A DNA stretch of 64,000 nt from assembly GCA_009780065.1 (NCBI GenBank), contig WRAS01000001.1, positions 34,521 to 98,520 of the forward strand, given 5' to 3'. The notes under the pieces were generated by a model that saw only the letters and a program-made list of their open reading frames with translations, had not been told where the DNA came from and made no database searches. Below are positions 5,864 through 56,905 of the stretch, piece by piece. The stretch's first letter is position 1. Every line of letters begins with the position of its first letter. The stretch is from Bacillota bacterium (GTDB lineage Bacteria; Bacillota; Clostridia; Christensenellales; UBA1242). Position numbers and translations under genes: made by a program.

Positions 5864-7144
5864 TTAATCCTGATTCTTATTTCTTTTTCGGTCCACAATT
5901 ATCAATATAAAAAGTCCCAGCAGAGTAGCACCAAATAGTGACAAAAGCCACCATAGTCGGTTATTATTATCGTCGTCTTTATTTAGATTTACGCTGATGA
6001 CATCACTTGGTTTGGAATCTGTAAACGTTATGCCGTCGCCCACTGCAATTATTCTGATTGAAAGTGTATCTATGGTTTCGATTAATTCATTCACGCTTGC
6101 AAGATTAAATGATGTTGCGGTGGATGTAAACTCTTGCTCGTTAATAATGATGATATAACTAACTGCGTTGTCGACCTGTGTCCATGTTAAAATGTTGTTT
6201 GTAACATTCAAATCTTGTGGTGTATCCAAAACAGAAGGCTGTAGGCTTCCTCCAAGTTCAATTTCTATGACAAGGTCGTGACCTATTAATGTTAATTCCA
6301 AAACTGTTGTTCCTGTCACTGTCCAGGCTGCCGCGTTATAATCGAGCCTTCCACTGGTGCCGGATATATTCTTGCCGTTAATTGTGATGTTATCAATATA
6401 AAAAGGGTGTGTGACAGAAATACGCACACTTGTTGTTGCCCAGTCAATCTTACTATTATTTGAAAGTACGGATTCTGTATCGTTAATATCTGTTGCGATA
6501 ACAGTCGCGTTCCCACCTGTGATATTGAATGTTATTGTGGGCTCGTATTCACCTTCCCAAACAACGGGGGCATATACAAAGGGACCAACGGCAATTCTGT
6601 TCCACATCAAAGACCATGAACCAGGTCTTTCAGACCGACCAGTAAAAATAGTTACATTTGGATTCCCTAGAAAAGGGGTGCCAATGATTGTCTGTGATAT
6701 ATGTGCTAAAGTTACACTGATTAAATTATTGTGGGCAAATGCCGTATTTCCAATAGAATTCACACTGGTCGGAATAGTCAATGTTTTTAAATTATTGTTT
6801 CTAAATGCGTTTGTTTCAATTTGGAATGAACCATTGTCTGGGATCGTTAAACCAACTATACCAATGTTTAAAAAGGCACTTGGTGCTATTATCTGAACTG
6901 GGACTAAGTTGATATAGTTTGGAATAACAACATGTATTGGATTAGTCATAGCAAGAACAGCAGGTGTGAGTCCCGTGATTGTGGCTACGCCGCCACTAGT
7001 AGTCCAAGTAAAATCGTCCGCTGTTGTGAAATGTATTTGGTCGCTTTGTTGGGGATTTGCAAAAATACCCGCAAAATGTAAAATCCCAAAGGTTAATGAT
7101 AGGATGGAAACCAATACCCCTGTACCTAAAAGAATTTTTTTCAC
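5864..7144 (-). CDS. Surface protein with BspA-type leucine-rich repeats, an FN3/Ig-like module and a C-terminal TM anchor
   Basis: Signal/TM MKKILLGTGVLVSILSLTF. LRR units such as IAPSAFLNIGIVGLTIPD, IETNAFRNNNLKTLTIPTSVNSIGNTAFAHNNLISV. FN3-like LNVTNNILTWTQVDNAVSYIIII. C-terminal WWLLSLFGATLLGLFILIIV plus DRKRNK. GTG start with an AAGGAGA Shine-Dalgarno. Confidence 0.75.
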   Translation of the reverse strand: MKKILLGTGVLVSILSLTFGILHFAGIFANPQQSDQIHFTTADDFTWTTSGGVATITGLTPAVLAMTNPIHVVIPNYINLVPVQIIAPSAFLNIGIVGLTIPDNGSFQIETNAFRNNNLKTLTIPTSVNSIGNTAFAHNNLISVTLAHISQTIIGTPFLGNPNVTIFTGRSERPGSWSLMWNRIAVGPFVYAPVVWEGEYEPTITFNITGGNATVIATDINDTESVLSNNSKIDWATTSVRISVTHPFYIDNITINGKNISGTSGRLDYNAAAWTVTGTTVLELTLIGHDLVIEIELGGSLQPSVLDTPQDLNVTNNILTWTQVDNAVSYIIIINEQEFTSTATSFNLASVNELIETIDTLSIRIIAVGDGITFTDSKPSDVISVNLNKDDDNNNRLWWLLSLFGATLLGLFILIIVDRKRNKNQD

Positions 7145-8878: not shown

Positions 8879-9124
8879 ATGGACGCTATTGAAAAAGCCG
8901 CGCCCAAGTATGCTATGTATGCCGACGGGGATGTTGCTAGACTGGCTAAACTGGTCGAGGCATATATGGTAAATATGGGCAGTTATGGAATCCACAAAAC
9001 GTTACGTGCCACTTTGGATAAACGTTTTTTCAGTGCGGCACAAATGGAATATTTACGTAAGCACAAAGAATTCATAAATGCACATTTTCCGGGCGTAAGA
9101 CCAAGGCAATATGGTACACAATAA
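8879..9124 (+). CDS. Hypothetical protein, 81 aa, soluble
   Basis: ORF sits directly behind a consensus promoter. No recognisable motif. Confidence 0.5.
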   Translation: MDAIEKAAPKYAMYADGDVARLAKLVEAYMVNMGSYGIHKTLRATLDKRFFSAAQMEYLRKHKEFINAHFPGVRPRQYGTQ

Positions 9125-9134
9125 AGGATATAAT

Positions 9135-9368
9135 ATGGAAGCACAAAGTATAGACAAAAAATTAATAGCAACCAGTTTAATCACAGCAGGTGCACTGGGA
9201 ATAGCAACAGTTGCCCCATTTGCTGGTTTGGCAATTATAGCGGGTGTGGGTGCACATGTTGCAAATGAAATAATTGGTGGCGGAGGAGATATTAACCAAG
9301 ACCAATTCGGGCAAATGCTGGATACGGCAATCGCCCAGCGACAATCAGAACCAGAATTGGTACGATAA
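9135..9368 (+). CDS. Hypothetical small membrane protein (77 aa), glycine-zipper-like hydrophobic hairpin
   Basis: AAAGGA Shine-Dalgarno 6 nt before ATG 9135. Hydrophobic stretch LIATSLITAGALGIATVAPFAGLAIIAGVGAHVA followed by a GGGG run. Confidence 0.5.
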   Translation: MEAQSIDKKLIATSLITAGALGIATVAPFAGLAIIAGVGAHVANEIIGGGGDINQDQFGQMLDTAIAQRQSEPELVR

Positions 9369-9397
9369 AATGAAAATTCAAAGGGGGAGATAATTAT

Positions 9398-9646
9398 ATG
9401 GCAAACATATCAATGGACGAGGCAAAGAACGCGCTTATGATAGGTGTACGCTCTACATTGCGTGCAATTGAAAACAGAACAGGCAAAAAATTTGCAAAAG
9501 ATGATTTACTAGCTGTCAGCAAGGTTATAAAAAAGAACCTATTTAACGAAGCCGGCTCAATACTTGCCAGCGAAAAATTCACAATGCAACAGGCCATCGC
9601 AATTGTGGACAAAGCGGTAGACGACGTAATTGCCGAATTTTCTTAA
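9398..9646 (+). CDS. Hypothetical protein, 82 aa, helical
   Basis: Strong Shine-Dalgarno AAGGGGGAG upstream of ATG 9398. No recognisable family. Confidence 0.55.
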   Translation: MANISMDEAKNALMIGVRSTLRAIENRTGKKFAKDDLLAVSKVIKKNLFNEAGSILASEKFTMQQAIAIVDKAVDDVIAEFS

Positions 9647-9739: not shown

Positions 9740-10972
9740 ATGAGCGACAAGATTAATATTCCAGAAAGACGCCTTAGAACCTTGCAGCGTCAAGCTGAAC
9801 ATGTTGAAGATTTAGAAATGCGTGACATAGCAGATGCCGCAGCTTCTCTTAGAGGGGCAGAGGGTGCGAGGGATATTAACGCATTTAGTCCTGAAACACG
9901 TGAAAAAGCAAAAAGTTTACGTATTGCCGCACTAGGTCGTATTGATGAAGTAATCGACCAGGTGTATTATGCCCCCCCACCAGAGCCCAAGAAAGAGAAG
10001 GTATCAACAGGTGGTGGTCTTACAACAGAGGCCGATGTTATGAATGTGCTGAAAAAAGATCGCAGTGCAAGAAGATGGGCAACAGCCAAGGGGGCAGCAT
10101 TGATTGGTGCGGGTGTTCTTGCTACACTTGTGGCAACTGGTTCCTGTGCACCAATGCGAGAAGTGCAACAACCACAGCAGCCACCGCAGCAAGAACAACA
10201 AACCCCAGAGCGCGAAACAGTCAGAGAAACAATCATCAGAGAAGTTAACCGTTGGATTACGGTCGTTCGTCCAGGTGTTCCAGGGCCGCAAGGTCCGCAA
10301 GGCCCACAAGGTCCGGGTGGCGGAGGAGGGGGTGGAACACAAACCCCAGAGTATCCAGGTCAACCAGGCGACCCAACAACCCCAGAGTATCCAGAAGATC
10401 CAGAATATCCAAAAGAGCCAGGGGATCCGGAAAAACCACAAGGTCCAGGTGGCGATGGAAGTATATATCACCCAGAAAACCCACCAGCCGAAAAAGAACC
10501 AGGTGACCCAGAGGTTGAGGTAAACGACCCAGATCTTGATGTTGATGTATGGGACCCAAATAATCCGCCAGGCGGTGACAAGGGTGACGACGATGATATC
10601 TTCTTTGAAGATCCGCCACCACCACCTCCACCAGGCAGCGGAAACAGTAATGACAAGGATGACGACATGTTCTTTGAAGACCCGCCACCTCCACCACCTG
10701 TAAATACCCCAAACCCAGAGGATCCGATTGTTCAACCACCGCCAGACCTTCCAATCGAGGAATGGCCGGCTCCAACACCGCCTCCATATATTCCTGCTCC
10801 ACCGTATGTACCAGCACCACCTCTACCAGATGGTCCACACTTTGAAGACCCACCAATCGTGGAAGCACCGGGTATTGAAACCGAAGTATTTGTGGCATCC
10901 AATGCAAGGCTTACAACCTTTGACCCACGAAATGTGGATTACGATAACTGGGATTACGACAGAGAGAACTAA
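9740..10972 (+). CDS. Bitopic proline-rich protein (410 aa) with TonB-like rod architecture
   Basis: Promoter TTGACA near 9675 and Shine-Dalgarno AAAGGGGAG. About 110-aa cytoplasmic N-terminus, TM GAALIGAGVLATLVATG, then a Q/P/E-rich region with GPQGPQGPQGPGGGGGGG, PEYP/EDPEYPKEPGDPEKP, and two DDD(I/M)FFEDPPPPPP modules. Confidence 0.8.
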   Translation: MSDKINIPERRLRTLQRQAEHVEDLEMRDIADAAASLRGAEGARDINAFSPETREKAKSLRIAALGRIDEVIDQVYYAPPPEPKKEKVSTGGGLTTEADVMNVLKKDRSARRWATAKGAALIGAGVLATLVATGSCAPMREVQQPQQPPQQEQQTPERETVRETIIREVNRWITVVRPGVPGPQGPQGPQGPGGGGGGGTQTPEYPGQPGDPTTPEYPEDPEYPKEPGDPEKPQGPGGDGSIYHPENPPAEKEPGDPEVEVNDPDLDVDVWDPNNPPGGDKGDDDDIFFEDPPPPPPPGSGNSNDKDDDMFFEDPPPPPPVNTPNPEDPIVQPPPDLPIEEWPAPTPPPYIPAPPYVPAPPLPDGPHFEDPPIVEAPGIETEVFVASNARLTTFDPRNVDYDNWDYDREN

Positions 10973-15056: not shown

Positions 15057-15085
15057 TTGACATTTATTACTGAATCTGTTAGAAT
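15057..15085 (+). promoter_or_regulatory. Promoter TTGACA-17-TAGAAT for the lipoprotein gene
   Basis: TTGACA 15057-15062, TAGAAT 15080-15085, followed by a leader carrying an AAAGGAGG Shine-Dalgarno. Confidence 0.6.
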
Positions 15086-15142: not shown

Positions 15143-15697
15143 ATGGACGAGAAAAAGAAAAAATTTGTGGCGGCTGGGCTTGCAATGGGTGTGCTTGGTT
15201 TGGCGGCGTGTAATGAGGCCACCGTCGCACCGACGCAACAATCAAACCCAAACCCGGGCGTGCAATACATTCACCCCGCCCAAACCCCAGATACCAGTGC
15301 CGAGGTAATTAGATTGCCAGGAGGGGGATCCCCAGACTATACAAACGAAACAAGACCAGGTACTGAGCAGGTAGTTGATCAAGAACCATTTGATGTTAGT
15401 ACTCTGATTGGAACTGGCTCAATTCAGGCACCATGTTTGCGTGAATGGGGTATGGAAGAGGTTCGTCGTGGGTCATTAGTAATTTGTACTAAAAGGGAAT
15501 GTTTGAATCCAGAGTGGGATGTTAATCACCGTGTCGGAGGTTTGGAAAACTTCTTAGATAGACAAGAAGAGGCTGGTGATCCAATTTCATGTCCGCAACA
15601 TATGGAAGCTGTAGTTAGGACACTACTTGATAGGCATTATCGTGAAAGTTTTTGTAAACCACTAGAAGAAGAGTCAGAACAATCACTTGGCGGGTAA
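15143..15697 (+). CDS. Lipoprotein (184 aa), Cys-containing C-terminal domain
   Basis: Signal peptide plus lipobox MDEKKKKFVAAGLAMGVLGLAAC. Classic AAAGGAGG Shine-Dalgarno. Five further Cys residues in the mature part. Confidence 0.8.
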   Translation: MDEKKKKFVAAGLAMGVLGLAACNEATVAPTQQSNPNPGVQYIHPAQTPDTSAEVIRLPGGGSPDYTNETRPGTEQVVDQEPFDVSTLIGTGSIQAPCLREWGMEEVRRGSLVICTKRECLNPEWDVNHRVGGLENFLDRQEEAGDPISCPQHMEAVVRTLLDRHYRESFCKPLEEESEQSLGG

Positions 15698-15733
15698 CAG
15701 ATTGCGTTATGGGTTAGAGTATTAAGTGATTTA

Positions 15734-15758
15734 AAGTAGCATTATCTGCTACTTTTTT
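15734..15758 (+). terminator. Rho-independent terminator after the lipoprotein gene
   Basis: AAGTAGC-ATTATCT-GCTACTT followed by a T run. Confidence 0.65.
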
Positions 15759-15760
15759 GT

Positions 15761-15789
15761 TTGACAAAATTTTCAAATGAATCTACTAT
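15761..15789 (+). promoter_or_regulatory. Promoter TTGACA-17-TACTAT ahead of the 1520-aa gene
   Basis: TTGACA 15761-15766, TACTAT 15784-15789. Confidence 0.55.
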
Positions 15790-15841
15790 TGAAATAGTCA
15801 TAAACGGGGAGCAGCGAACAAAATTCCTGCCTTGATGGGGG

Positions 15842-18800
15842 GTGGTTGACCTAAAGTTTGTACCTTTATTAGTGGGTGGTGTAGTTGCTGCTGGTCTCTT
15901 TGGTAGTAGGGCATTACAAGCTCTGATGAATTGGACTTTATTCCAAGAATTGTTCTTTAATATAACCCAATGGGTTGCGGGTATATTTTTTGGTTTTTGG
16001 CGTATGGTTGCGGGTGTGGTGGACATTATGGAAATGTTATTTTTGATGTTTGCAGGGTTAGAGGCCATCTACAGTGTCCCCGGCGATGTTTATTATGCAG
16101 GTATGGAAGGTGGACAGGGTGGAATAGGGGATGAAACCATGGTGTATTCAGAAACCCTTGTTACAATGATTATTCGTAGTGCAGTTGTTCAAAACGTATT
16201 TGGAAGCATGCTTGCTGTTGCAACCGTATTAATGATATTCTTCACAATTATTGTGCTTATTCGTAACCAATACAAAGAAAAAGACGGCGGAAACCCATAC
16301 CAGGTCATTTTTCGTATGTTCAAGGGGATGGTGATGTTCCTGTTTATTACCACTGGTGTTATTGTTGGATTGATGTTGTCTGGAATTGTTTTTCATGCCC
16401 TTAACATGGCAACGCGGCAGGGTGTTCAAACGCAAATGTCGGGGTTAATATTTCAATCCATGTCATTTGGTGCCAATCGTATGCGTGCACCAATTCCAGC
16501 GACACACCCAGATATGAATTTACAATTAAGAAAAATGATTGATGGTACTAATGAAGAGCAGAGAGACAGTGGAGGTTGGTGGCGAGAAGGCGAAATAGTA
16601 AGACATGGAACTAATTTTTGGGTACGACCAATGATTGAGGGAATGGATATGAGTGTTCCAGGTCATGAAGAGGGAAATTTTATTGTTATTATTCCACGCC
16701 ATTTAGAAGATGGGGCAGAAAACGTTGGAGTTATTGAGATACGTATGTTTTATACTACTATTAGTGTGTATCAACAAGGTCCTTCTCTGCCTGGTGGCGG
16801 GTTTGGACCAGGTACTTGGATGGGAATGCCTTCAATAGCAACGTATGTAGTTGATGAAAGACCTCAAACATATAACCCCCCAACATGCCCATCCTTTTTC
16901 TTTGGGTTGAGATCTACTCCAGAAAAAGAGCAAATAGGTAGTGTGGTGGATAGACAGCGTATCCATCGCAACTTTGGGGCACTGTATTCTGAGCGTAGCG
17001 TAATTCCAGAGTTGGGCAATTTTGAAACAAGAGAACTTGCAGAAACAGCAGCAGATGCAACTCGCCATTCAATTGCGAACGTACGTAAATTATTTTGGGG
17101 ATACTCAACCCATAGCGACTTGACGACTGTTAGCAATCCAAATGAAGGTCAATTTTGTGGCAGCAGTGGTAGTTGGGATGGACGTAGAGATCAAAGACTA
17201 GGCTATCTTCCATCTAGTCATGGATATATACAGGGCTGGGGTAGTGGAACATTTATGCGTATAGTAAGCGATGATAGTCCATATTTGAGTTTAATACATC
17301 AAATAACACTTAATTCAGAATCTAGTCCAATAGACACTACTATGGTTAAAAATTATACGCCTGCTAATCCAGTTCAAGGTTCTGAAAGATTTAGTACCAG
17401 AGGCGTTAGGTTTAACATAATTGTTCCATGTTTGTTTAATCTTGCAGGTGCAGACGATATAGAGATACTAATATCCGACGATCCACACCCTATAAGGGGC
17501 ACTCTTTTTGGTCCTGCATTTAGACTTGGTAATTATGCATATGAACAGGCTATTCTTTCTACTACTGAACTTGCAGGTATACCAGATAACCAAAGGGCAC
17601 GAAGGTACGCACAAATTGCTGCATGGATTGATTATCAGATGGCAAAAACCGTACCAGATTATTGGTTAATAATATCTGAAGAAACGGCAGAAGAATCGCC
17701 TGGGAGCATATATGCTGTAACGGTGATAGGAGCAATGACGTATAACAATACGGATGCGGTGGTCGTATTGTATTATGTCTTTGATATGGATTGGTTGATA
17801 GGGTGGTTGGGGATATTTATAATATTCGGTGTGATGTTGAATTTCACATTTGCATTGATCCAGCGGGTGGTGGAATTGGCGGTGATGTATATGATGTCGC
17901 CTATTACGGTCGCGATGTATCCGTTTGATGATGGAAATGCGTTCAGTAATTTATTTGTCAAACCGTTCTATAAAAAAGTTATTGCGGTCTTTGCGCCGGT
18001 CATTGCGATAAACCTGTTCTTTGTGATGTTCCCGGTGTTCCGTGGAATCCAATTCTTCCCAGAGGGCAATTTGTTTACAGGTACAATTCCAAACCTTGTT
18101 GCGCGAACATTGGTAATATTGGCATTGTTCAGCATGTTGCCGGCAATTCGTACCCAGGTGCAAAATATGTTGGGTGCAGATGCAATGCAACAAAAGAAAC
18201 TTGGCGAAGTCTGGAAAGAATCGACTGCCGCTGTATTCGGCTCTAAACTGGGTGCCAAGGTGGCCGCGGCTCCGAAGGGTGCTGTGGTTGGCGGTGCACA
18301 TCTTGCACGTAACTATGTTGGGGCACGCAAAAGTCAGAATACAGGTCAAGAAGAGAAACTTTCGCTTTCGGAACGCATGTCAATGGGTGCAGCCGGTTTT
18401 GGTTTAGGTGCAAAATCAAAGGCAGAAAGAGAGAAAGTTTTAAAAGACAAAAAAGATAAAAATGCCCTTAAGGAGGACTATGAACTTGCTTTTGGTAAAG
18501 GCTCGTTCGACAAAGATACCAAGGGCATGGATTCAAAGGCAATAGGGGAAAAACTTAAAGGTAAAGAAAAGGAAATTGCGGATGCAAGAGAAAAAAAAGC
18601 ATCACAAAAATTTGGAGAATTGGCTGATAAAAACCAGAAATTATATGGTAAAGATTATCGTGATGATTTAGTTGCACAGTTTGAAAAACTTAAAGGGGCC
18701 CATGGCTCTGCAGGTGCGTATGAAATAATAGCGAAAAAACAGGTTCCAGAGTTATACATGCGTGAAAAGGGAATGACAGACAAAGATAGAAAAGAATACG

Positions 18801-20404
18801 ATGCAGTGCATGGTGAAGGCGCCTTTAATAAGATGGCTATGTTTAAGCACGAAAACAGGAGTGAGGGAGATGAAAATGGTGAAAAAGCATGGAATAATAA
18901 AGTAGGCTTTGATAAGAGATTTGGTGAAGGTGCATATCAAGAAAGAAAAGAATATGATGCAAACCATGGCAAAGGTTCTTGGCAGATGAAGCGGGAGCAT
19001 GATGCAAAACATGGCGAAGGTAGTTACGATAAGAAACAAGAAGAAGAGGCAGAAGGCAAGAAAAAACCTGGTCGTGGCAGCGCATTCCAAGTGGCCCTTG
19101 CAAATACCAAAACATGGGAGAAGATGCGTAAACCTTTGTACTTCTTTGGGACAGAGGGTGTAAGCGAAGCCCAAGATAAAATGGAACAAGTATATTTTGC
19201 ACGTCGCAAGTCCGAGGCCGGTATGGCGGATGAATTGTACAAGAACAAGTTGGACTGGGAAGGCGCAATGAGAGCCAAAGTTGAAATGGATAAAATTAGG
19301 GTTGAACTTAAAAGTGATAAACTGGATAAAGCAATGCGTCTTCATTTGGAAGATAGATTAGGTAAAATGCAAGATGACTTTGATAGAGGTATGAAATCTT
19401 GGAAAAGTCTTGGCAAAACCGACAAGCAGTTTGCTGCGATGAGTACCGCATATCTTGCAACACGGGAAGATGGTATAACTGATAATGAAAGAGAAAAACG
19501 TGAGAAGGTATACGAAACATTAACCCACAGTACAGTCAGCAAAAAAGATATCTATTTTCAAGACCGTGCAAAAAAATACCAGGAACGTGTGGATGGTGTC
19601 ATGACAGATGCAACCATGCGTGAGATTGGCAAAAAGTTGCAGGCCAAGGTGGCTAGCGACCCAAAAATGGGTATGTTGATGGAAGATAAAGGATTCATTC
19701 AAGCACTTAAAGAGAATGGTATGGATGTTAAAACAGCAATGACAGAGTTGCGTGAATTCCTTAGAACGGGTGAAGACAAGAAGAACTATGGTTTCAAGGG
19801 CGGGAATGTGGACAAGTTGCGTGGCAACTCGGTAGACGTTCAAAAAGGTATCGAGTTTACACACTTCTTTACTGATCTTCTGGGGGATGCAAAGGGTGCA
19901 AAGTCTGACGGTTCTTTTGCCGCGACCGCCAACCATGCGGCTGCACTTGCTAATATGCTTATAAGTGACGAGGTTTCTAAAAAGGCAGATGCCGGAAGAA
20001 ATGCACTTGGACAACAAGAAATGGCTAGTGTTAACCAAATTGACCAAGTTGCGAAAGGGGTGGATCAAGTTGCTAACTTGGTTTCAGATAGTCGAGTGCA
20101 AGCTGAGATTGCTAGATTGAAAGACATACCGAATCTTGAGATTGCGAGGGGGAATGATGCAGCATTCTATGACATCCTTATGAAAGAACTTAAGCGCGTT
20201 CAAGATGCCTCAAGCGACGCCACTGAAAAAGACAGTATTGCGCGCGCAATACGTGAATTGTCCAGTCACCGTACGAACGTGCAAAACATTGCTCGACTTA
20301 CTGTGGAGCAAGACTACTTGGGTGAAATTGTTTCTCAGTTCAAAATGTGGGACGACTATTTCAAGAGTATTATGGGTACTGCGAAATATCCTGGAAAGGG
20401 TTAA
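15842..20404 (+). CDS. Giant polytopic membrane protein (1520 aa): two multi-TM blocks around a large extracytoplasmic domain, plus a K/E-rich coiled-coil tail of about 700 aa; candidate TrbL/VirB6-like channel component
   Basis: Uninterrupted 4.5-kb frame. TM block 1 covers about aa 5-210 and block 2 about aa 640-770 (IFIIFGVMLNFTFALIQRVVELAVMYMMSPITVAMYPF, VIAVFAPVIAINLFFVMFPVF). The VirB4-like gene follows 38 nt later. GTG start is uncertain. The VirB6 assignment is inference from topology and context only. Confidence 0.85.
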   Translation: MVDLKFVPLLVGGVVAAGLFGSRALQALMNWTLFQELFFNITQWVAGIFFGFWRMVAGVVDIMEMLFLMFAGLEAIYSVPGDVYYAGMEGGQGGIGDETMVYSETLVTMIIRSAVVQNVFGSMLAVATVLMIFFTIIVLIRNQYKEKDGGNPYQVIFRMFKGMVMFLFITTGVIVGLMLSGIVFHALNMATRQGVQTQMSGLIFQSMSFGANRMRAPIPATHPDMNLQLRKMIDGTNEEQRDSGGWWREGEIVRHGTNFWVRPMIEGMDMSVPGHEEGNFIVIIPRHLEDGAENVGVIEIRMFYTTISVYQQGPSLPGGGFGPGTWMGMPSIATYVVDERPQTYNPPTCPSFFFGLRSTPEKEQIGSVVDRQRIHRNFGALYSERSVIPELGNFETRELAETAADATRHSIANVRKLFWGYSTHSDLTTVSNPNEGQFCGSSGSWDGRRDQRLGYLPSSHGYIQGWGSGTFMRIVSDDSPYLSLIHQITLNSESSPIDTTMVKNYTPANPVQGSERFSTRGVRFNIIVPCLFNLAGADDIEILISDDPHPIRGTLFGPAFRLGNYAYEQAILSTTELAGIPDNQRARRYAQIAAWIDYQMAKTVPDYWLIISEETAEESPGSIYAVTVIGAMTYNNTDAVVVLYYVFDMDWLIGWLGIFIIFGVMLNFTFALIQRVVELAVMYMMSPITVAMYPFDDGNAFSNLFVKPFYKKVIAVFAPVIAINLFFVMFPVFRGIQFFPEGNLFTGTIPNLVARTLVILALFSMLPAIRTQVQNMLGADAMQQKKLGEVWKESTAAVFGSKLGAKVAAAPKGAVVGGAHLARNYVGARKSQNTGQEEKLSLSERMSMGAAGFGLGAKSKAEREKVLKDKKDKNALKEDYELAFGKGSFDKDTKGMDSKAIGEKLKGKEKEIADAREKKASQKFGELADKNQKLYGKDYRDDLVAQFEKLKGAHGSAGAYEIIAKKQVPELYMREKGMTDKDRKEYDAVHGEGAFNKMAMFKHENRSEGDENGEKAWNNKVGFDKRFGEGAYQERKEYDANHGKGSWQMKREHDAKHGEGSYDKKQEEEAEGKKKPGRGSAFQVALANTKTWEKMRKPLYFFGTEGVSEAQDKMEQVYFARRKSEAGMADELYKNKLDWEGAMRAKVEMDKIRVELKSDKLDKAMRLHLEDRLGKMQDDFDRGMKSWKSLGKTDKQFAAMSTAYLATREDGITDNEREKREKVYETLTHSTVSKKDIYFQDRAKKYQERVDGVMTDATMREIGKKLQAKVASDPKMGMLMEDKGFIQALKENGMDVKTAMTELREFLRTGEDKKNYGFKGGNVDKLRGNSVDVQKGIEFTHFFTDLLGDAKGAKSDGSFAATANHAAALANMLISDEVSKKADAGRNALGQQEMASVNQIDQVAKGVDQVANLVSDSRVQAEIARLKDIPNLEIARGNDAAFYDILMKELKRVQDASSDATEKDSIARAIRELSSHRTNVQNIARLTVEQDYLGEIVSQFKMWDDYFKSIMGTAKYPGKG

Positions 20405-20442
20405 TTGCGTCAGATTGTCAAATGCAATGGGGGAAAATTTAG

Positions 20443-23070
20443 ATGTCGCAATATCTTATTCCGCGTAAAACAAAGGTAAAAACCGAATTCATGAATGGTA
20501 TAACCGGCGGTGACCTATTCTATTTGGGCATTGCCGGAACCATCGTGGGTATGACTTTTGCCGCCAACTTTGCTTACAGCATCGTGGTGGGTATTGTTAT
20601 GTTGTTGCTTGCACTTATCGGATTTATCAAAGTGGAAGAGGGTGTTCGTGGATACGCGGCGTCTTGGCGTGTGTTTAAGTTCTTTGCATATGCCAAAAAG
20701 TACGCCAAAGTGCATGGGGGCGGTTATCGCGATATAAAGGACCTTGTACCATACGTAGGCATAGAGGAGAGTAAATACGTTAACTATGGTGATTATTATG
20801 CAAGGGTTATTGAAATAAAACCCATAGAATATGGTCTTTTGGATATCGATAAGCGTAATATGGTAGTTCAGAATTTTGCAAATGCTATTCGGAGAATAGG
20901 ATACACACAAAGTGCAAGTATCATAAGTTTAGAACGTGGTATGATTCTGGACAAATATGTGGATTACGAGATAGAAAAATACGAGGCAACAGTTAATGCC
21001 ATGGAAACAGGGGGTATGTCGGATACCGAACTTTCTGCACGTGAAATTATTTTTAACGAGCGCGGAATGTTGCTTGAATACATGAATAGCGAGGAAAAAA
21101 TATTCAAAGGCTGTTACTATTTAGTTATTTATGACCGAACTAAGGATTCTTTAGAGGCAACTGCGCGTGGGATAAGAGCAACTTTATCAAGTTCTGTTGT
21201 TCCAGTCGATAACTATTTCGTCGAAGGAAAGGAACTTATTATCTTTTTACGAGCAAATTATAATAAAGACTTTGATGAACGACAAACAAACAGCATGCCA
21301 GAAGAAAAATTGATGAATTGGGTTATCCCAAACAAAGTCAATTTTACAACACGTCTTGCAAAAATCAATGGATTGCCGCGTGGTGGTTTTACCATAACGG
21401 ATTATCCAAATGATGTTGGCAATGCCTGGGCATATACAATTTTTAATATGCCGGGTACTAGGGCTGTTATGAATATCCTTCCAATTCCTAAGGAATTATC
21501 CATACGCGTTATTGACAAGGCGATTTTGGAGATGAAAACACAAATGGCAAGCAGTCACAAGTCCAGTCACCAAATGGAACGTGACAAGCAGTTGAACACA
21601 ATTACTGACCTGCTTTCACAGATTAAAATGAACAACGAGTTATTGTTGGACGTAAATATTCATCTTACGCCAGATCAAGAATCAAAACGTGAGGTAAAAG
21701 CAAAACTAAGAGAAGAGGGGTTCAAGTTCTCTGAATTGCTGGGGCGCCAGGTGGATTCATTTATATCCAGCAACGTTTCACGTCTGGAAACTCTGACTGA
21801 ATACAGCCGTGGTATGCCAACCACTACAGTTGCAGCCACATTTCCGTTCATTTCTGATATGTTGCAAGACGAAAAAGGTATTTGTATAGGGTCAAACACA
21901 TACCCTGTTTTCATTGATTTCTTTAAACGAAACAACATTCGTGTTAACAGTAACATGATAATAATAGGAAAGTCTGGTTCTGGAAAGTCGTTTGCGACAA
22001 AATCTGTTTTGGCACACTTGGCGGCGGATAACACAAAGATTTTCATTTGTGACCCAGAACGTGAATATGTTGGAATGGCGCAAAAATTGCACGGTGGTTT
22101 TATAGATGTCGGTAATGCGGGTAAGGGACGCTTCAATCCGTTCCATATTTATCCGGCTATGTTAGATGACGATGACGGTGTAGAATTTGACGACACATTT
22201 GAAAACCATCTAAGGTTCTTGGAAAGTTACTTCAAAATTGTTATGGAGGGTATCACCAGTGATGCGCTGGAAGTTCTTAACGGTCTTGTTGCGCAATTAT
22301 ATAAATTAAAGGGAATTGACAAGCACACTAAATTTGATTTATTGGAACCGCATCATTTTCCAATTTTCCAAGAACTATTTGAACTTTCTAAGCAATACCT
22401 TGCAGCAGCTACAGATGATTTCTCGCGCGTTAACTATAGAAAAATTGTTACATATTTGGAAAAGTTCGCAGAAGGTGGACGATTCTCGGGTCTTTGGAAT
22501 GGTCCAGCGACAGTTCGAAGTCAAGAGAACTTTTTCGTATTTGACTTTTTGACATTGCTTGCAAACAAAAATACAATTGTGGCGAATGCCCAGATGCTTC
22601 TTGTGTTCAAGTACTTGGATGGTGAAATTATTAAGAATCGTCAATATAACCAAAAACATGGTGTTAAAAGAAAGATAATAATAGCAGTGGACGAGGCGCA
22701 CGTGTTCATAGATGAAAAACGTCCGATTGCGCTTGATTTCATGTTCAACATGGCAAAACGTATTCGTAAGTACGACGGGATGCAAATAATTATTACCCAG
22801 AACATCAAGGACTTTGTTGGAAGTCCGGTTATCGCAAAAAAATCTGCGGCTATTATAAACGCGAGTCAGTATTCTATGATTTTCTCTCTGGCTCCTAATG
22901 ATATGTCTGACCTTGTGACACTTTATAAAAACTCGGGTGAAATTAACAAGACTGAACAAGAACAAATCGTGGGTAACGCACGTGGACAAGCATTCTTTAT
23001 CTCAGGACCTGCAAACAGAACACTTGTAACAATTGAAACCAGTGAGGCGATGAGGGCATTGTTCGAGTAA
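20443..23070 (+). CDS. virB4: VirB4/TraE/PrgJ-type T4SS ATPase with a fused N-terminal 2-TM (VirB3/TcpE-like) module
   Basis: N-terminal helices LFYLGIAGTIVGMTF and IVVGIVMLLLALIGFI. Walker A IIIGKSGSGKSFATKS (21967-21990), Walker B IIIAVDEAHVF (about 22678-22707). The 875-aa size is typical of Gram-positive VirB4 homologues. Confidence 0.85.
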   Translation: MSQYLIPRKTKVKTEFMNGITGGDLFYLGIAGTIVGMTFAANFAYSIVVGIVMLLLALIGFIKVEEGVRGYAASWRVFKFFAYAKKYAKVHGGGYRDIKDLVPYVGIEESKYVNYGDYYARVIEIKPIEYGLLDIDKRNMVVQNFANAIRRIGYTQSASIISLERGMILDKYVDYEIEKYEATVNAMETGGMSDTELSAREIIFNERGMLLEYMNSEEKIFKGCYYLVIYDRTKDSLEATARGIRATLSSSVVPVDNYFVEGKELIIFLRANYNKDFDERQTNSMPEEKLMNWVIPNKVNFTTRLAKINGLPRGGFTITDYPNDVGNAWAYTIFNMPGTRAVMNILPIPKELSIRVIDKAILEMKTQMASSHKSSHQMERDKQLNTITDLLSQIKMNNELLLDVNIHLTPDQESKREVKAKLREEGFKFSELLGRQVDSFISSNVSRLETLTEYSRGMPTTTVAATFPFISDMLQDEKGICIGSNTYPVFIDFFKRNNIRVNSNMIIIGKSGSGKSFATKSVLAHLAADNTKIFICDPEREYVGMAQKLHGGFIDVGNAGKGRFNPFHIYPAMLDDDDGVEFDDTFENHLRFLESYFKIVMEGITSDALEVLNGLVAQLYKLKGIDKHTKFDLLEPHHFPIFQELFELSKQYLAAATDDFSRVNYRKIVTYLEKFAEGGRFSGLWNGPATVRSQENFFVFDFLTLLANKNTIVANAQMLLVFKYLDGEIIKNRQYNQKHGVKRKIIIAVDEAHVFIDEKRPIALDFMFNMAKRIRKYDGMQIIITQNIKDFVGSPVIAKKSAAIINASQYSMIFSLAPNDMSDLVTLYKNSGEINKTEQEQIVGNARGQAFFISGPANRTLVTIETSEAMRALFE

Positions 23071-23119: not shown

Positions 23120-23323
23120 ATGTTACTTTTTATCATGTTACATCATGCGTTTAGAAAAGGTACCCATATACTGATAATATTTAGGGATGGAAGCAAACTG
23201 GATTGTAAATTTCTGGATAGAAAGGCCAAGAGCATGATTACAGATAAAGGTGAGTTTTTGTTCCGCGACATGCGTGCAACCACAATTTTCAAACACAACG
23301 CAGGAGGTCGCAATGATTCATAA
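23120..23323 (+). CDS. Hypothetical small protein (67 aa or shorter)
   Basis: ORF only. Overlaps the next start by 11 nt. No motif. Confidence 0.3.
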   Translation: MLLFIMLHHAFRKGTHILIIFRDGSKLDCKFLDRKAKSMITDKGEFLFRDMRATTIFKHNAGGRNDS

Positions 23324-24257
23324 AATGTTTTTGAATCCAGAATCATTTAGAAAAATAAAAGATGGAACCAAAAAAGTGGAACTTCGTCTCTTTGACGAAA
23401 AAAGAAAACAAGTTAAAATTGGGGATACAATAATTTTCACCAACCGTGAATCGCAAGAGCAGTTGCTGGTTACGGTAAAAGATTTACACTTTTTTTCTTC
23501 GTTCAGAAAATTATTTAAGAAAATAGAAAATACTAAATTAGGATGTGTAGAGGCTGATCTGGATGAATTTTACACAGAGGCCGAGCAACACAAGTACGGT
23601 GTTGTTGGTATAGAAATTGCCGAGTATGTGGATGAAAGGAACGTTTTTAAAGAGACATGGGAAAGAATTCACGCAATACACATGAATACTGCGGTTGTAT
23701 ATGATGATTGGTTGGATAAGTACCTGCATATGATTCCCAAAGATGATGTTATCTTGGAACTTGGTTGCGGGCGCGGAAATAATGTAAAGTATTTACTTGA
23801 ACGTGGTTTTGATATCCTCGCCACAGATTTTTCGGAAAACGCAATAAATTATGTCAGTAAAAAATTTCCAAAAAGTAAAACAATGCTATTGGATGTTAAT
23901 AATACTTTCCCATTTAAAAATGCCCAGTTCTCGGTGATTATTGCAGATTTGTGTTTACATTATTTCACCCAGCAAAAGACAGAAGAAATTTTGAAGGAAA
24001 TAAAACGGGTACTTAGACCAAATGGAATTCTGCTGGCAAGGGTAAATTCAAAAAACGATATTGAATATGGAGCAGGGAAAGGAAAGAAGATTGAAAAAGA
24101 TTATTACTTTGTAGAGGGTTATAATAAAAGATTTTTTGATATAGCAAGTGCACAGCGCTTTTTTGAAATTGTTGGCCAAACCAAAGTAACGGAAACAGAT
24201 ATATCCAGATATGATAAAGTTAAAAAGGCAATTGAAATTTCCGTGCGAAAGTTTTAA
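23313..24257 (+). CDS. ASCH (PUA-like) domain fused to a class I SAM-dependent methyltransferase
   Basis: AGGAGG Shine-Dalgarno 5 nt before ATG 23313. ASCH-like FRKIKDGTKKVELRLFDEKRKQVKIGDTIIF. Methyltransferase motif I ILELGCGRGNN and motif II-like VIIADLCLHYF. Confidence 0.75.
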   Translation: MIHKMFLNPESFRKIKDGTKKVELRLFDEKRKQVKIGDTIIFTNRESQEQLLVTVKDLHFFSSFRKLFKKIENTKLGCVEADLDEFYTEAEQHKYGVVGIEIAEYVDERNVFKETWERIHAIHMNTAVVYDDWLDKYLHMIPKDDVILELGCGRGNNVKYLLERGFDILATDFSENAINYVSKKFPKSKTMLLDVNNTFPFKNAQFSVIIADLCLHYFTQQKTEEILKEIKRVLRPNGILLARVNSKNDIEYGAGKGKKIEKDYYFVEGYNKRFFDIASAQRFFEIVGQTKVTETDISRYDKVKKAIEISVRKF

Positions 24258-56860: not shown

Positions 56861-56905
56861 ATCAATATTATACTCGATAATAGAATTATATGGTAGTATA
56901 AATTT

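Follow-up and report, generated by a model that had tools for sequence, protein, structure and literature searches.

The DNA between positions 15,842 and 23,070 of the 64,000-nucleotide stretch analysed here (the window) probably holds the genes for the membrane core of a type IV secretion system (T4SS) of the monoderm (MPF-FATA) type, turned into a fixed chromosomal organelle, which would serve export to a neighbouring cell rather than self-transfer. The evidence lies in the gene identities, motifs and architecture of this core, as well as in its synteny and conservation. By sequence, the machine and the CDS15-16-17 conjugation module of Mollicutes ICEs have a common origin, but inheritance is here vertical. 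An earlier note on this DNA had suggested a domesticated T4SS-like core rather than an active ICE, which the profile matches, the synteny and the absence of mobility genes from ~80 kb support. Its view that the gene set matched no described system does not hold, the set being the Mbov_0395/0396/0397 (CDS15/16/17) module of Mollicutes ICEs, and its parts list omitted a VirD4 gene at 58,797-60,788 and the conserved surface protein of ~2550 aa encoded after it.

The fused VirB4 ATPase and its VirB6-like partner

The gene at 20,443-23,070 (forward strand, as are all features given with coordinates below) encodes an 875-aa VirB3-VirB4 fusion ATPase of the Mbov_0397 (mycoplasma ICE CDS17) family. 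Against the NCBIfam model VirB4_plasma (NF045975), it scored 576.5 bits (E 7.7e-173), short of the cut-off of 590, with an end-to-end alignment of residues 21-874 to model positions 22-893 that includes the membrane N-terminus. With further matches to the Pfam families P-loop_TraG (82 bits), DUF87 and AAA_10 and to the VirB4 ATPase domain of PDB 4AG5 (E 8.6e-46), the initial VirB4 call survives profile searching. The Walker A (GKSGSGKS, residue 509, 21,967-21,990) and Walker B (IIIAVDE, residue 745, 22,675-22,695) motifs, rightly described as clear, are kept in at least 90% of 114 full-length homologues, 113 of which have an N-terminal membrane segment. Regarding this segment, the fused module of two membrane helices (residues 10-85, 20,470-20,697) reported earlier can be called PrgI/VirB3-like from its family: Pfam PrgI is the sole match for the copy at hand, below cut-off (E 0.012-0.014), and among 26 family members PrgI was matched by 13 (best E 2.3e-6) and VirB3 by one. 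Out of 8000 candidates scored, 321 were homologous at E<=1e-5; among the 120 matches listed, identities range from 45 to 100%, with lengths mostly of ~875-907 aa and a few fragments.

Ending 38 nt ahead of this gene, as had been noted, the open reading frame at 15,842-20,404 encodes a 1520-aa polytopic membrane protein of the MMCAP2_0566/Mbov_0396 (CDS16) family, i.e. an extended VirB6-like protein. Its start codon is uncertain, the GTG at 15,842 lacking a good RBS and homologue alignments beginning at about residue 30. Hydropathy confirms two multi-TM blocks, hydrophobic at residues ~2-190 and ~646-769. The first (residues 1-230, 15,842-16,531) comprises ~4 long helices and is 44-46% identical to relatives; in the AF2 model, its helices 31-70, 114-145 and 152-192 have pLDDT values that mostly exceed 90. 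The second (residues 600-830, 17,639-18,331), with the motif SPxTxAxYPFDDG, is the best-conserved part of the protein; its residues 642-785 carry the NCBIfam match and pLDDT reaches 86-97 over residues 631-780. Between them runs a hypervariable hydrophilic loop of ~430 aa (residues ~216-645, 16,487-17,776), for which no homologue is detectable even in relatives with a 73% identical VirB4; its size varies from ~70 to ~1100 aa across relatives and pLDDT is below 50 over residues 267-548. The remaining ~700 aa (18,242-20,404) form a charged tail (K/R 19%, D/E 17%), weakly conserved (P0122, E 2.9e-8), in which the motif D-x-x-[FH]-G-[EK]-G-[AS]-[FYW] occurs as a direct repeat in five copies. The positive-inside rule alone predicts that the loop faces outward and the tail the cytoplasm.

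The helical core of the giant is confidently modelled (315 residues with pLDDT of at least 90, pTM 0.63), and a Foldseek search with this model, as had been proposed, returned no significant structural match, the R388 TrwI/VirB6 chains recurring at E 2-6 with a probability of at most 0.23. The family assignment comes from profiles, namely NF045848 (MMCAP2_0566; E 4.1e-19, 69 bits, under the NCBI curated cut-off of 90) and NF045889 (Mbov_0396; E 1.1e-10, 41.5 bits, under the curated cut-off of 70). A profile search with the giant collected 1501 representatives at E<=1e-3, and each of the 53 shorter relatives that the exhaustive search brought up matches both families, six of them also matching the pLS20_p028 family and one TrbL_4. 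The pLS20_p028 family is annotated merely as a conjugation-system transmembrane protein, and the VirB6 assignment is our own. Besides, a giant-type gene precedes VirB4 in every related locus with upstream DNA available. Judged by these matches, the giant is a homologue of the VirB6-like CDS16 family of mycoplasma ICEs and fits the term "extended VirB6" as PMC12857230 uses it, being about five times longer than the ~300 positions of the CDS16 family models.

The gene immediately upstream (15,143-15,697) encodes, as stated before, a 184-aa lipoprotein whose N-terminus, MDEKKKKFVAAGLAMGVLGLAAC, bears an L-A-A-C lipobox. It has no Pfam or NCBIfam match and is specific to this genome, no homologue occurring at loci L001-L012 (L011 included) or L020-L027; in L001, L002, L003 and L005, the giant gene follows gap so closely that no room is left for a lipoprotein gene. 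Because it is absent from every relative examined, the lipoprotein is probably not part of the machine, contrary to its original inclusion in the core. As for expression signals, the two promoters and the terminator proposed earlier exist as consensus-like sites: TTGACA-17-TAGAAT with extended TG ahead of the lipoprotein gene (15,057-15,085), a hairpin with a 9-bp stem and a T-run 3' of it (15,733-15,755), and TTGACA-17-TACTAT just ahead of the giant-VirB4 pair (15,761-15,789). The promoters are consensus matches only, the total count in the region (35) not standing out from that in shuffled sequence (27.9 +/- 6.1).

Chromosomal setting and the second half of the system

The core is flanked upstream by fba, a GT2 glycosyltransferase gene and gap, and downstream by an ASCH-methyltransferase gene and then the V-type ATPase operon, in agreement with the core-metabolism flanks (gap and the ntp operon) first described. 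The host belongs to a lineage of reduced-genome termite-gut Clostridia (~1.1-1.4 Mb), with a coding density of 91.6% and the standard genetic code; its relatives are "Christensenellaceae gut cluster 13" MAGs (1.08-1.20 Mb, 58-87% completeness) that encode a cell-wall hydrolase and a Mur-type ligase. Several termite-gut genomes hold the giant-VirB4 pair between gap and the V-ATPase operon, with VirB4 63-73% identical. The order GT2-gap-giant-VirB4-ntpD/B/A is common to L001 and L003, fba-GT2-gap-giant-VirB4 is found in L005, and VirB4 is directly followed in L008 by the P-type ATPase gene that here comes after the ntp operon. Neighbours in all relatives are housekeeping genes. VirB4 identity (L001 73%, L003 70%, L002 70%, L005 63%, L011 47%) tracks that of gap (82, 78, 75, 70 and 62%, respectively), and the conservation of VirB4 comes close to that of ntpA (76-78%) and fba (66%) and exceeds that of GT2 (40-54%) and ntpD (60-61%). 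The locus is thus syntenic across diverged genomes, not accessory, and its gene order and divergence mark it as vertically inherited.

The second half of the system lies across 36 kb of housekeeping DNA (V-ATPase, P-type ATPase, RNase R, IleRS, Lon, ScpAB). At 58,797-60,788 (from 58,860 according to the gene caller), a VirD4-type coupling ATPase (T4CP) is encoded, with 2-3 N-terminal membrane helices, a Walker A motif GTTGSGKT and matches to Pfam T4SS-DNA_transf, TrwB_AAD_bind and TraG-D_C, to TrwB (E 2e-5) and to NCBIfam NF045973 conju_CD1115 (301.5 bits, passing the cut-off of 250); VirD4s of sister genomes are 79-85% identical. It is followed by the gene for a surface protein of ~2550-2560 aa, of which the 5' part (61,394-64,000) lies in the window, with an N-terminal signal or anchor and, at the C-terminus, a membrane helix and a basic tail. 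Homologous surface giants adjoin or neighbour VirD4 in L020, L021, L023, L028 and L011, an unaligned 2816-aa gene occupying this position in L029.

In the deeper relatives L011, L028 and L029 (VirB4 47-49% identical), the genes for a surface giant, VirD4, a pilin-like protein, a VirB6-like protein and VirB4 stand together, VirD4 adjoining the VirB4 cluster, and gap lies 3-5 kb downstream of the cluster in two of the three (L011 and L028), in the latter together with fba. The pilin-like gene matches NF045849 in L028 and L029 (E about 1e-8 to 1e-10) and a local HMM in L011 (E 2e-24); the VirB6-like gene scores 120-150 bits in L028 and L029, above the cut-off of 90, that of L011 being matched by BLAST only. 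All three loci have an extra single-pass gene between these two. Proteins without family also occur, i.e. soluble ones of 619-946 aa after VirB4 in L028 and L029 and single-pass ones of 554-755 aa, and such a family-less cluster gene could be an unrecognised relaxase or effector. Elsewhere, T4SS_pilin (PF18895) is found just upstream of VirD4 in L023, and in L003 it forms one protein with a cell-wall hydrolase of the Hydrolase_2 family.

The lack of relaxase, integrase, transposase, tRNA and flanking repeats asserted for the 64 kb is borne out. Called genes from ~5.7 kb upstream of the window to ~7.2 kb past its end (position 71,200; ~80 kb out of some 1.2-1.4 Mb for the whole genome) include no integrase, relaxase or transposase, and no relaxase family was matched in this DNA or in ~20 related loci scanned. 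The window has no tRNA gene or Rfam family, the locus has no att-like repeats (short, imperfect, chance-level repeats only), and its GC content of 0.41-0.43 resembles that of the flanks, with no compositional break. As also observed before, no VirB8/TcpC-like protein or cell-wall hydrolase is visible in the window or its flanks, nor is a pilin, and the machine is therefore incomplete as seen here.

Relationship to known type IV secretion systems

In the Mollicutes ICE (MICE) of M. agalactiae (ICEA) and M. bovis (ICEB), the module consists of CDS15 (Mbov_0395), CDS16 (Mbov_0396) and CDS17 (Mbov_0397, VirB4/TraE), with CDS5 as TraG/VirD4 and CDS14 as a lipoprotein among further genes (PMC6030558; PMC12857230). 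The present system is alike in the end-to-end match of its VirB4, the CDS16-type membrane blocks of the giant directly ahead of VirB4, the CDS15-like pilin of its relatives and a minimal set that lacks a VirB8-like gene in the vicinity; here too the module has a lipoprotein gene beside it, albeit one unconserved and unrelated to CDS14 by any test. It differs in lacking the DDE transposase (CDS22), ICE borders and other ICE backbone genes, in a fixed chromosomal position syntenic across genera, in a VirB4 just 25-32% identical to those of mollicutes and spiroplasmas, in a VirD4 that best fits the clostridial CD1115 family rather than a mollicute one, and in its standard genetic code and the wall enzymes of its relatives.

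Patescibacteria have a chromosomal, relaxase-less T4SS derived from MPF-FATA, which is essential to epibiotic growth in Ca. Southlakia epibionticum, and share with the present case a monoderm host and a reduced genome (PMC12102498; PMC12857230). Both systems are widespread in their lineage and not relaxase-linked, t4cp can sit far from virB4, and a PF18895-type pilin occurs in relatives of the one described here. By contrast, the host phylum is here Bacillota (Clostridia), VirB6 is of the mollicute CDS16 type and hugely extended, and VirB3 and VirB4 are fused, a fusion missing from the Patescibacteria data set (PMC12102498).

The Gram-positive conjugative T4SSs (pCF10 PrgH/PrgI/PrgJ/PcfC, pCW3 Tcp, pLS20 and C. 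difficile CTn CD1110/CD1115) share the PrgI/VirB3-like module, a polytopic VirB6-like protein, VirB4 and VirD4, the latter passing the CD1115 cut-off and some members of the giant's family matching pLS20_p028. Those systems are plasmid- or ICE-borne, with relaxase, VirB8-like protein (PrgL/TcpC) and hydrolase (PrgK/TcpG) in one operon, whereas the components are here scattered and chromosomal and VirB4, at 152.5 bits, stays well under the cut-off of 325 for the CD1110 model. The rvh T4SS of Rickettsiales, with extended, duplicated VirB6-like proteins, is likewise vertically inherited in split chromosomal islets, as is generally known, but belongs to the diderm MPF-T type, has an outer-membrane core, is hosted by intracellular parasites of eukaryotes and is related in sequence no closer than superfamily. 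It is also relaxase-free, in a reduced genome, and its "extended VirB6" proteins have large hydrophilic domains (PMC12857230).

Alternative explanations and predicted function

An ordinary ICE or recent island with borders outside the window is hardly credible. VirB4, VirB6-like and VirD4 genes are indeed an ICE hallmark and the family is named after ICE genes, yet synteny has already largely refuted this reading, the pair keeping one chromosomal site by gap/fba in genomes whose VirB4s are 47-73% identical; the 36 kb between the two halves, the lack of mobility genes and repeats in the DNA scanned and the even composition go the same way. That the locus is a non-functional remnant of an ancient ICE, not yet deleted, is very improbable: the window shows an incomplete set that lacks pilin, hydrolase and VirB8-like genes, the two halves of the cluster have become separated and large parts of the giant evolve very fast, but frames of 4.5, 2.6, 2.0 and ~7.6 kb are intact in densely coding DNA, catalytic motifs are kept across the 114 homologues, VirB4 and VirD4 equal core metabolic genes in conservation, and reduced genomes would be expected to shed unused genes fast.

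T4SS-based DNA uptake and release systems are known in other bacteria, and ComB-type uptake works without VirD4. A ComB-like competence or GGI-like secretion device feeding nucleotides or genes to an auxotrophic cell would suit the reduced genome, relatives in this order being predicted to lack nucleotide biosynthesis (PMC12306168), but seems improbable: the present system has a conserved VirD4 that clusters with it, cell-cell contact would suit the huge surface protein and the hypervariable exposed loop better than free-DNA uptake, and in a cultivated Saccharibacterium the essential T4SS role is separable from ComEC-mediated DNA uptake (PMC12857230). Rather unlikely, though to be taken more seriously, is chromosomally fixed conjugation, in which a relaxase and an oriT located elsewhere in the chromosome would let chromosomal DNA pass from cell to cell within the clade through the VirD4/VirB4/VirB6 channel; if true, this would parallel the chromosomal transfer of mycoplasmas in a chromosomally fixed form. 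Among characterised proteins, the nearest relatives belong to conjugative systems (mycoplasma ICE CDS16/CDS17, PMC6030558; Spiroplasma plasmid VirB4s), a highly conserved VirD4 of a conjugative family (CD1115) is retained, a canonical relaxase is not named among the five listed conjugation-machinery homologues of mycoplasma ICEs either (PMC12857230), and the uncharacterised soluble proteins behind VirB4 in L028 and L029 could be accommodated. Against it stand the complete lack of relaxase matches in the DNA scanned, the fact that the soluble downstream protein is unconserved and missing from the window, and the reading of a like pattern in Patescibacteria as co-option away from conjugation (PMC12102498).

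Regarding the export machine favoured here, topology, assembly, substrate and the roles of the loop and surface giant are predictions. The 1520-aa protein would be the VirB6-like channel subunit, its two helical blocks forming the translocon in the cytoplasmic membrane, with the loop outside the cell and the charged tail within. Anchored beside it by two helices, the PrgI/VirB3-VirB4 fusion would power assembly and transport, and VirD4 would recruit the substrate. The surface protein and the variable loop most likely mediate contact with the target cell, and the machine probably also includes a T4SS pilin and a pilin-fused cell-wall hydrolase, which its relatives have, encoded elsewhere in the genome. 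By analogy with epibiotic Patescibacteria, the machine appears to be kept for the cell's own use, and the best guess as to its function is contact-dependent export of a macromolecule, be it DNA or a protein, to an adjacent cell for the benefit of the host bacterium.

The ATPases, the polytopic giant and their companions

The three reading frames described in the earlier note are all present on the forward strand, at 15143-15697 (a lipoprotein of 184 aa, frame confirmed), 15842-20404 (a polytopic giant of 1520 aa with a GTG start, frame confirmed) and 20443-23070 (a VirB4 ATPase of 875 aa, beginning 38 nt past the stop of the giant). The identity proposed for VirB4 is upheld by profile searches, which return the Pfam families P-loop_TraG (82 bits), DUF87 and AAA_10, the NCBIfam model NF045975 and PDB 4AG5, a solved VirB4 ATPase domain (E 8.6e-46). 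The N-terminus is hydrophobic, and the Walker A (GKSGSGKS, residue 509) and Walker B (IIIAVDE, residue 745) motifs are both conserved across the family; these matches and motifs provide the signature ATPase of a type IV secretion system (T4SS) of the MPF-FATA class. Against NF045975, i.e. VirB4_plasma, the Mbov_0397 family ATPase of mycoplasma ICEs, the alignment runs full length (residues 21-874 on model positions 22-893 of 894, E 7.7e-173); since the score of 576.5 bits nonetheless lies below the curated cut-off of 590, the protein is best regarded, on its sequence, as a close outlier of this equivalog and no formal member. The clostridial CD1110 VirB4 model reaches only 152.5 bits, and, on plasmids, the best matches (25-32% identity) are to Spiroplasma genes carrying the annotation Mbov_0397 family.

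Within the first 120 residues of VirB4, the sole Pfam match is a weak one to PrgI (PF12666, E 0.012-0.014, model positions 7-87 of 91), the VirB3-like protein of Gram-positive T4SSs. Since PrgI is matched independently by 13 of 26 VirB4-family N-termini, with a best E of 2.3e-6 (VirB3 being matched by one), the two-helix N-terminus, already guessed to be VirB3-like, is a VirB3/PrgI module fused to VirB4; the small membrane protein of this type expected in the MPF-FATA class is thus found here as a VirB4 fusion.

The giant has hydrophobic blocks at residues ~2-190 and ~646-769. From hydropathy and alignments, it can be divided into a membrane block 1 (residues ~1-216), a hydrophilic insert between the membrane blocks (~216-645), a membrane block 2 (~600-830) carrying the motif SPxTxAxYPFDDG, and a K/E-rich tail (the last ~700 aa) in which a short [FH]-G-[EK]-G motif occurs five times. 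Its start codon is uncertain, as a good ribosome-binding site is lacking for every candidate and the alignment with homologues begins at ~residue 30. Residues 642-785 match two NCBIfam models below their curated cut-offs. One is NF045848, for conjugal transfer proteins of the MMCAP2_0566 family (E 4.1e-19; 69 vs. 90 bits), and the other NF045889, for ICE transmembrane proteins of the Mbov_0396 family (E 1.1e-10). Mbov_0396, the gene directly upstream of Mbov_0397, is CDS16 of the mycoplasma ICEs. A review describes CDS16 as only a "likely VirB6-like" component (PMC12857230).

To recover the family of the giant, an exhaustive profile search was needed, word-indexed searches giving three matches with its N-terminal 820 aa and none with a 13-sequence alignment. 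With membrane block 2, 1501 representative proteins were obtained at E<=1e-3; the 81 at E<=1e-30 are nearly all giants of 1100-2400 aa and are followed by a large group of ~700-900-aa proteins. In a sample of this group, all 53 members match both NF045848 and NF045889, some above cut-off, six also match the pLS20_p028 family, whose annotation is that of a transmembrane protein of a conjugation system and which is taken to be the VirB6-like component, and one matches TrbL_4. As to structure, AlphaFold2 applied to residues 1-830 with a 4-sequence alignment was unusable (pLDDT 31.6); with 75 sequences it gave a confident helical core (315 residues with pLDDT >=90, pTM 0.63), residues 267-548 remaining disordered. 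A Foldseek search of the model against the PDB returned nothing significant, R388 TrwI/VirB6 chains recurring only at E 2-6, and spliceosome matches were set aside as artefacts of the disordered insert. For the VirB6/TrbL-like nature hinted at in the earlier note, the evidence is mixed: the homology to the CDS16 family is significant but below the curated cut-offs, Pfam, TrbL/VirB6 included, yields no match to the protein and Foldseek no significant one, so that VirB6 membership is suggested through the CDS16 and pLS20 families and not from structure.

No homologue of the insert is detectable, even in genomes with a VirB4 73% identical, and its length in relatives ranges from ~70 to ~1100 aa. 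According to the positive-inside rule, the insert would face outward and the tail inward. This architecture is that of the "extended VirB6" pattern, for which the role of the extended domains is an acknowledged open question (PMC12857230).

The earlier component list lacked a coupling protein, which lies in the same window at 58797-60788 (+). This VirD4 ATPase matches Pfam T4SS-DNA_transf, TrwB_AAD_bind and TraG-D_C, passes NCBIfam NF045973 (CD1115 VirD4-like family, 301.5 bits vs. a cut-off of 250), and has 2-3 N-terminal membrane helices and the Walker A motif GTTGSGKT; the coupling protein (VirD4/TcpA) of the MPF-FATA class is thus present, 36 kb from virB4 here and adjacent to it in three deeper relatives (L011, L028 and L029). 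Also overlooked was a conserved surface giant of ~2550 aa (+), which follows VirD4 after a small GrpB gene, starting at ~61394-61439 and running past the window end, with an N-terminal signal/anchor, a C-terminal membrane helix and a basic tail. Three membrane-protein genes directly upstream of VirD4 (56906-57226, 57233-58267 and 58267-58725) were considered as T4SS parts and rejected, since they are not conserved beside VirD4 in related loci L020-L024 and have no family support except one L7/L12 C-terminal-like domain. The latter domain (Pfam 39.4 bits, above cut-off; TIGR00855 E 1.7e-8) ends the 344-aa product of 57233-58267 (+), which has two membrane helices and is encoded in a co-directional run with the genes of the 106-aa and 152-aa membrane proteins. 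Divergent from these genes, 56201-56941 (-) encodes a second lipobox lipoprotein (MKKVVLTLLVIVLIVPTAFIMTGC..., 219 aa by gene call) without family match.

The first lipoprotein, counted in the earlier note as part of the core, does not belong to the conserved set. Its N-terminus, MDEKKKKFVAAGLAMGVLGLAAC, is a signal peptide with a lipobox at its end; the protein matches no family and has no homologue in any related locus examined, and it was rejected on the same grounds as a CDS14 analogue, i.e. a conserved part. Since only 36-106 nt separate gap and the giant gene in the four closer relatives (L001, L002, L003 and L005), these have no room for it, and it is an insertion specific to the window's genome. 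Concerning its regulatory signals, consensus promoter-like sites were found where the earlier note had placed them, ahead of the lipoprotein gene (15057-15085, +, TTGACA-17-TAGAAT) and of the giant gene (15761-15789, +, TTGACA-17-TACTAT), with a hairpin and T-run in between (15733-15755, +). Both sites are intergenic and are the best promoter-like matches of the region; as a class, such sites are not enriched (35 in the region vs. 27.9 +/- 6.1 in shuffles), and these signals are plausible as predicted elements.

Three further components were sought. No VirB8/TcpC/PrgL-like protein appears in the Pfam matches of the called genes of the window and flanks or in the related clusters, and no VirB1-like cell-wall hydrolase among the called genes of the window and flanks, in keeping with what the earlier note had reported for both. 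A T4SS pilin (PF18895 or Mbov_0395-like) is an optional component of the MPF-FATA class and is present in six related loci (L003, L009, L011, L023, L028 and L029); because the window and flanks contain no pilin-like frame when searched with a local HMM of eight relatives (best E 0.56), the gene must be elsewhere in this genome or lost.

Conservation and presumed ancestral arrangement in related genomes

A comparative scan limited to one genome per species retrieved 12 loci with VirB4 relatives (42-73% identical), all from uncultured gut Bacillota/Clostridia. Wherever a locus extends upstream of VirB4, the gene directly before it encodes a polytopic protein of the giant's family (645-2597 aa). 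The order GT2-gap-giant-VirB4-...-ntpD/B/A, GT2 being a glycosyltransferase gene and ntp the V-ATPase operon, is kept in L001 and L003, and fba-GT2-gap-giant-VirB4 in L005; in L008, the gene after VirB4 encodes the P-type ATPase which in the window comes after the ntp operon. VirB4 and gap diverge together, with respective identities of 73 and 82% (L001), 70 and 78% (L003), 70 and 75% (L002), 63 and 70% (L005) and 47 and 62% (L011), and VirB4 is conserved about as well as ntpA or fba and better than GT2 or ntpD. Among sister genomes, VirB4 is 63-73% identical and VirD4 79-85% (same termite metagenomes), the latter standing next to or near a homologous ~2550-aa protein in L020, L021 and L023. 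Because of this synteny, of the co-divergence with gap and of identities similar to those of ntpA and fba, vertical inheritance at a conserved site and purifying selection on the ATPases are well argued for at the level of protein sequence, synonymous sites being saturated at this distance.

In the deeper relatives L011 (from human gut), L028 and L029, whose VirB4 is 47-49% identical, the T4SS genes form one cluster. An N-anchored giant and VirD4 lie on one strand, the giant being mostly or entirely cut by the locus end (2438 aa in L028 and 2816 aa in L029 by gene calls, 663 aa visible in L011). A divergent two-helix protein of 101-138 aa matches NF045849 (Mbov_0395 family pilin-like, E ~1e-8 to 1e-10) in L028 and L029, and its counterpart in L011 is matched by the local HMM. 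The cluster further includes a single-pass protein of 554-755 aa without family, a VirB6-like protein of 712-922 aa (120-150 bits in L028 and L029 for a cut-off of 90, by BLAST only in L011) and a VirB3-VirB4 fusion, with a soluble protein of 619-946 aa in addition in L028 and L029. A few kb downstream lie fba, gap and mnmA (L028), gap (L011) or mnmA (L029). From this single cluster, it follows that the window lineage has the same system, split into two pieces 36 kb apart. The single-pass proteins could be VirB8-like candidates; the possibility that the insert of the giant is a fused copy of them was dismissed, phmmer finding no similarity.

The pilin occurs in other settings as well, directly upstream of VirD4 in L023 (PF18895, 45.5 bits), in L009 as the N-terminal part of a protein of 554 aa encoded ahead of the giant, and fused to a Hydrolase_2 cell-wall hydrolase in L003, 0.3 kb from the GT2-gap-giant-VirB4 block. 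In the latter (L003 1-1875, -), a 625-aa frame running off the contig end has two near-identical T4SS_pilin modules flanking the Hydrolase_2 domain, and this doubling is either a tandem duplication or a contig-edge assembly artefact; if real, the fusion is an unusual VirB1/VirB2 combination. Of note, some VirB4 relatives (L008 and protein P0099) come from MAGs labelled Prevotella sp. or Spirochaetales. Beside the L008 VirB4, the P-type ATPase is 52% identical to that of the window and the neighbours match the Clostridia lineage, for which reason such contigs are probably mis-binned or mislabelled.

Genomic surroundings and competing readings of the locus

From ~5.7 kb upstream of the window to ~7.2 kb past its end, the called genes are all housekeeping or without known role, including those for MnmE, FtsH, UvrC, TilS, an ABC-F ATPase, fba, gap, the nine-gene V-ATPase operon, the P-type ATPase, RNase R, IleRS, Lon and ScpA/B. 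None encodes an integrase, transposase, relaxase or replication protein, and in the ~20 related loci examined no integrase, transposase or relaxase is linked to the transfer genes. The window contains no tRNA and no Rfam family, and the locus shows no GC break and no att-like repeats, repeats around it being only at chance level. The absence of mobility genes, tRNA and flanking repeats noted earlier for the 64 kb therefore extends to ~80 kb with the flanks.

Several neighbouring features deserve mention in their own right. Between VirB4 and the V-ATPase operon, 23120-24257 (+) carries a 67-aa ORF and a gene fusing an ASCH domain to a SAM-methyltransferase, and VirB4 is not followed by any terminator-like site; as relatives have unrelated small genes at this position, these genes are probably outside the T4SS. 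Surface proteins represent a heavy investment for a small genome, the ~2550-aa surface giant being accompanied by a putative 426-aa LRR_5 surface protein (5864-7144, -), weakly similar to the HupY/LrrG adhesin and mycoplasma Gli349, and a putative 592-aa one with Flg_new (Listeria-Bacteroides) repeats (52150-53928, +). Besides, 9740-10972 (+) encodes a 410-aa single-pass protein without family match and with a proline/acid-rich tail (GPQGPQGPQ and FFEDPPPPPPP repeats), preceded by three ORFs of 81-85 aa without family (8879-9646), and the 9-11 kb stretch is a compositional outlier (GC 0.46, AT skew 0.24). Regarding chromosomal position, mnmE, often near oriC in Bacillota, lies ~4.1-5.5 kb upstream of the window start (219-1595 of L015, the source-contig stretch upstream), and cumulative GC skew climbs through the greater part of the window, declining briefly near 25-32, 36-38 and 42-43 kb. 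On both counts, the T4SS genes may be origin-proximal, as reported for those of Patescibacteria (PMC12102498).

An active ICE would call for a linked integrase or DDE transposase and a relaxase, of which the ~80 kb and the related loci hold none, and for borders and variable presence, where neither tRNA nor att site is found and the locus is syntenic in L001, L003, L005, L008, L011 and L028. Decay into a dead remnant is contradicted by the frames of the VirB3-VirB4 ATPase, the CDS16-family polytopic protein and VirD4, all intact. Because of the synteny, of intact frames of 2-7.6 kb in a dense small genome and of the conservation, both readings are largely excluded, the remnant being highly improbable and the active ICE hardly credible at all. 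The earlier proposal of a domesticated locus rather than an ICE is, in turn, strengthened by the conserved site and the co-divergence of VirB4 with gap, and we consider it quite probable that the locus is a domesticated chromosomal T4SS predicted to be functional. The main rival would assign the chromosomal machine a role in DNA transfer, with a relaxase that is unlinked or unrecognised; this is judged a rather unlikely alternative.

Within the domesticated-T4SS reading, the first choice is that material would be exported to a partner cell upon contact. In this scheme, the giant would supply the translocon with its membrane blocks, VirB4 would dock onto this translocon via its PrgI-like helices and energise it, and VirD4 would deliver the substrate. 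Contact with the target cell may fall to the hypervariable loop, facing outward, and to the surface protein of ~2550 aa, and the system would serve the bacterium itself.

Related systems, host and biological meaning

By sequence, the nearest described system is the CDS15-16-17 (plus CDS5) module of Mollicutes ICEs (PMC6030558, PMC12857230), from which the window locus differs by lacking every mark of mobility within the ~80 kb covered and by a VirB4 just below the equivalog cut-off. In biological terms, its closest counterpart is the MPF-FATA T4SS of Patescibacteria, a chromosomal system with a pilin and no relaxase, which one cultivated species requires for epibiotic growth and whose t4cp often lies far from virB4 (PMC12102498). 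The window locus is distinguished from it by its VirB6 giant and by its VirB3-VirB4 fusion, of which none was found in the Patescibacteria study (PMC12102498). The rvh system of Rickettsiales, scattered, vertically inherited and with extended VirB6, is a conceptual parallel only, being an unrelated diderm machine. Every part here belongs to known families and nothing is categorically new; to our knowledge and in the papers searched, the combination itself is undescribed, that is a T4SS of mollicute-ICE type fixed in the chromosome of reduced-genome Clostridia, syntenic from termite to human gut lineages and endowed with a hyper-extended, hypervariable VirB6.

As for the host, an uncultured organism, the related MAGs Lab288P1 bins 95, 80 and 73 and Co191P1 bin 89 are classified as Firmicutes; Clostridia; Christensenellaceae; "Gut cluster 13" (PMC7024585 supplement), with 1.08-1.20 Mb, 58-87% estimated completeness and 91-94% coding density, and Lab288P1_bin142 falls in the neighbouring "vadinBB60 termite cluster" (PMC7024585). 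The literature search found no paper on "Gut cluster 13". A wall-less host like the Mollicutes is not favoured: the Mur-type ligase adjoining VirB4 in L002 and the hydrolase-pilin fusion in L003, both in loci of relatives, indicate that the host is probably walled. Reduced-genome Christensenellales (family UBA1242) have been proposed as obligate symbionts or parasites on metabolic grounds, with no mention of a T4SS (PMC12306168).

The T4SS of Patescibacteria has been singled out as unique among monoderms, being needed for growth and having a pilin gene (PMC12857230). The present data suggest that the T4SS of this Clostridia lineage is likewise chromosomal, relaxase-less, pilin-bearing and vertically inherited, and thus a possible second co-opted monoderm T4SS, in reduced-genome Clostridia of termite, sheep and human guts. 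As same-order relatives have been proposed to be partner-dependent on metabolic grounds alone (PMC12306168), it offers concrete candidate machinery for such dependence. In addition, the CDS15/16/17 module of mycoplasma ICEs gains distant chromosomal relatives outside Mollicutes, which could help to define its conserved core, and the series of extended VirB6 proteins from ~650 to 2600 aa, with an insert different in every genome, bears on the role of extended domains.

A broader reading, put forward tentatively and more doubtful than not when taken jointly with all its parts, is that a whole clade of small-genome gut Clostridia, including the termite "Christensenellaceae gut cluster 13" and its kin from sheep and human guts, has retained a T4SS for contact, as an organelle which is passed on vertically and defines the lineage. 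Its parts would be a pilin, a giant VirB6 whose exposed domain diversifies, VirB3-VirB4, VirD4 and an adhesin-like protein of 2500 aa, and the organelle might be used for feeding on or exchanging material with partner cells. If true, this would be a second and independent "T4SS for a partner-dependent life" of the Patescibacteria type, in a different phylum, and Mollicutes ICEs could have drawn their conjugation module from the stock represented by this chromosomal system, not from a plasmid.
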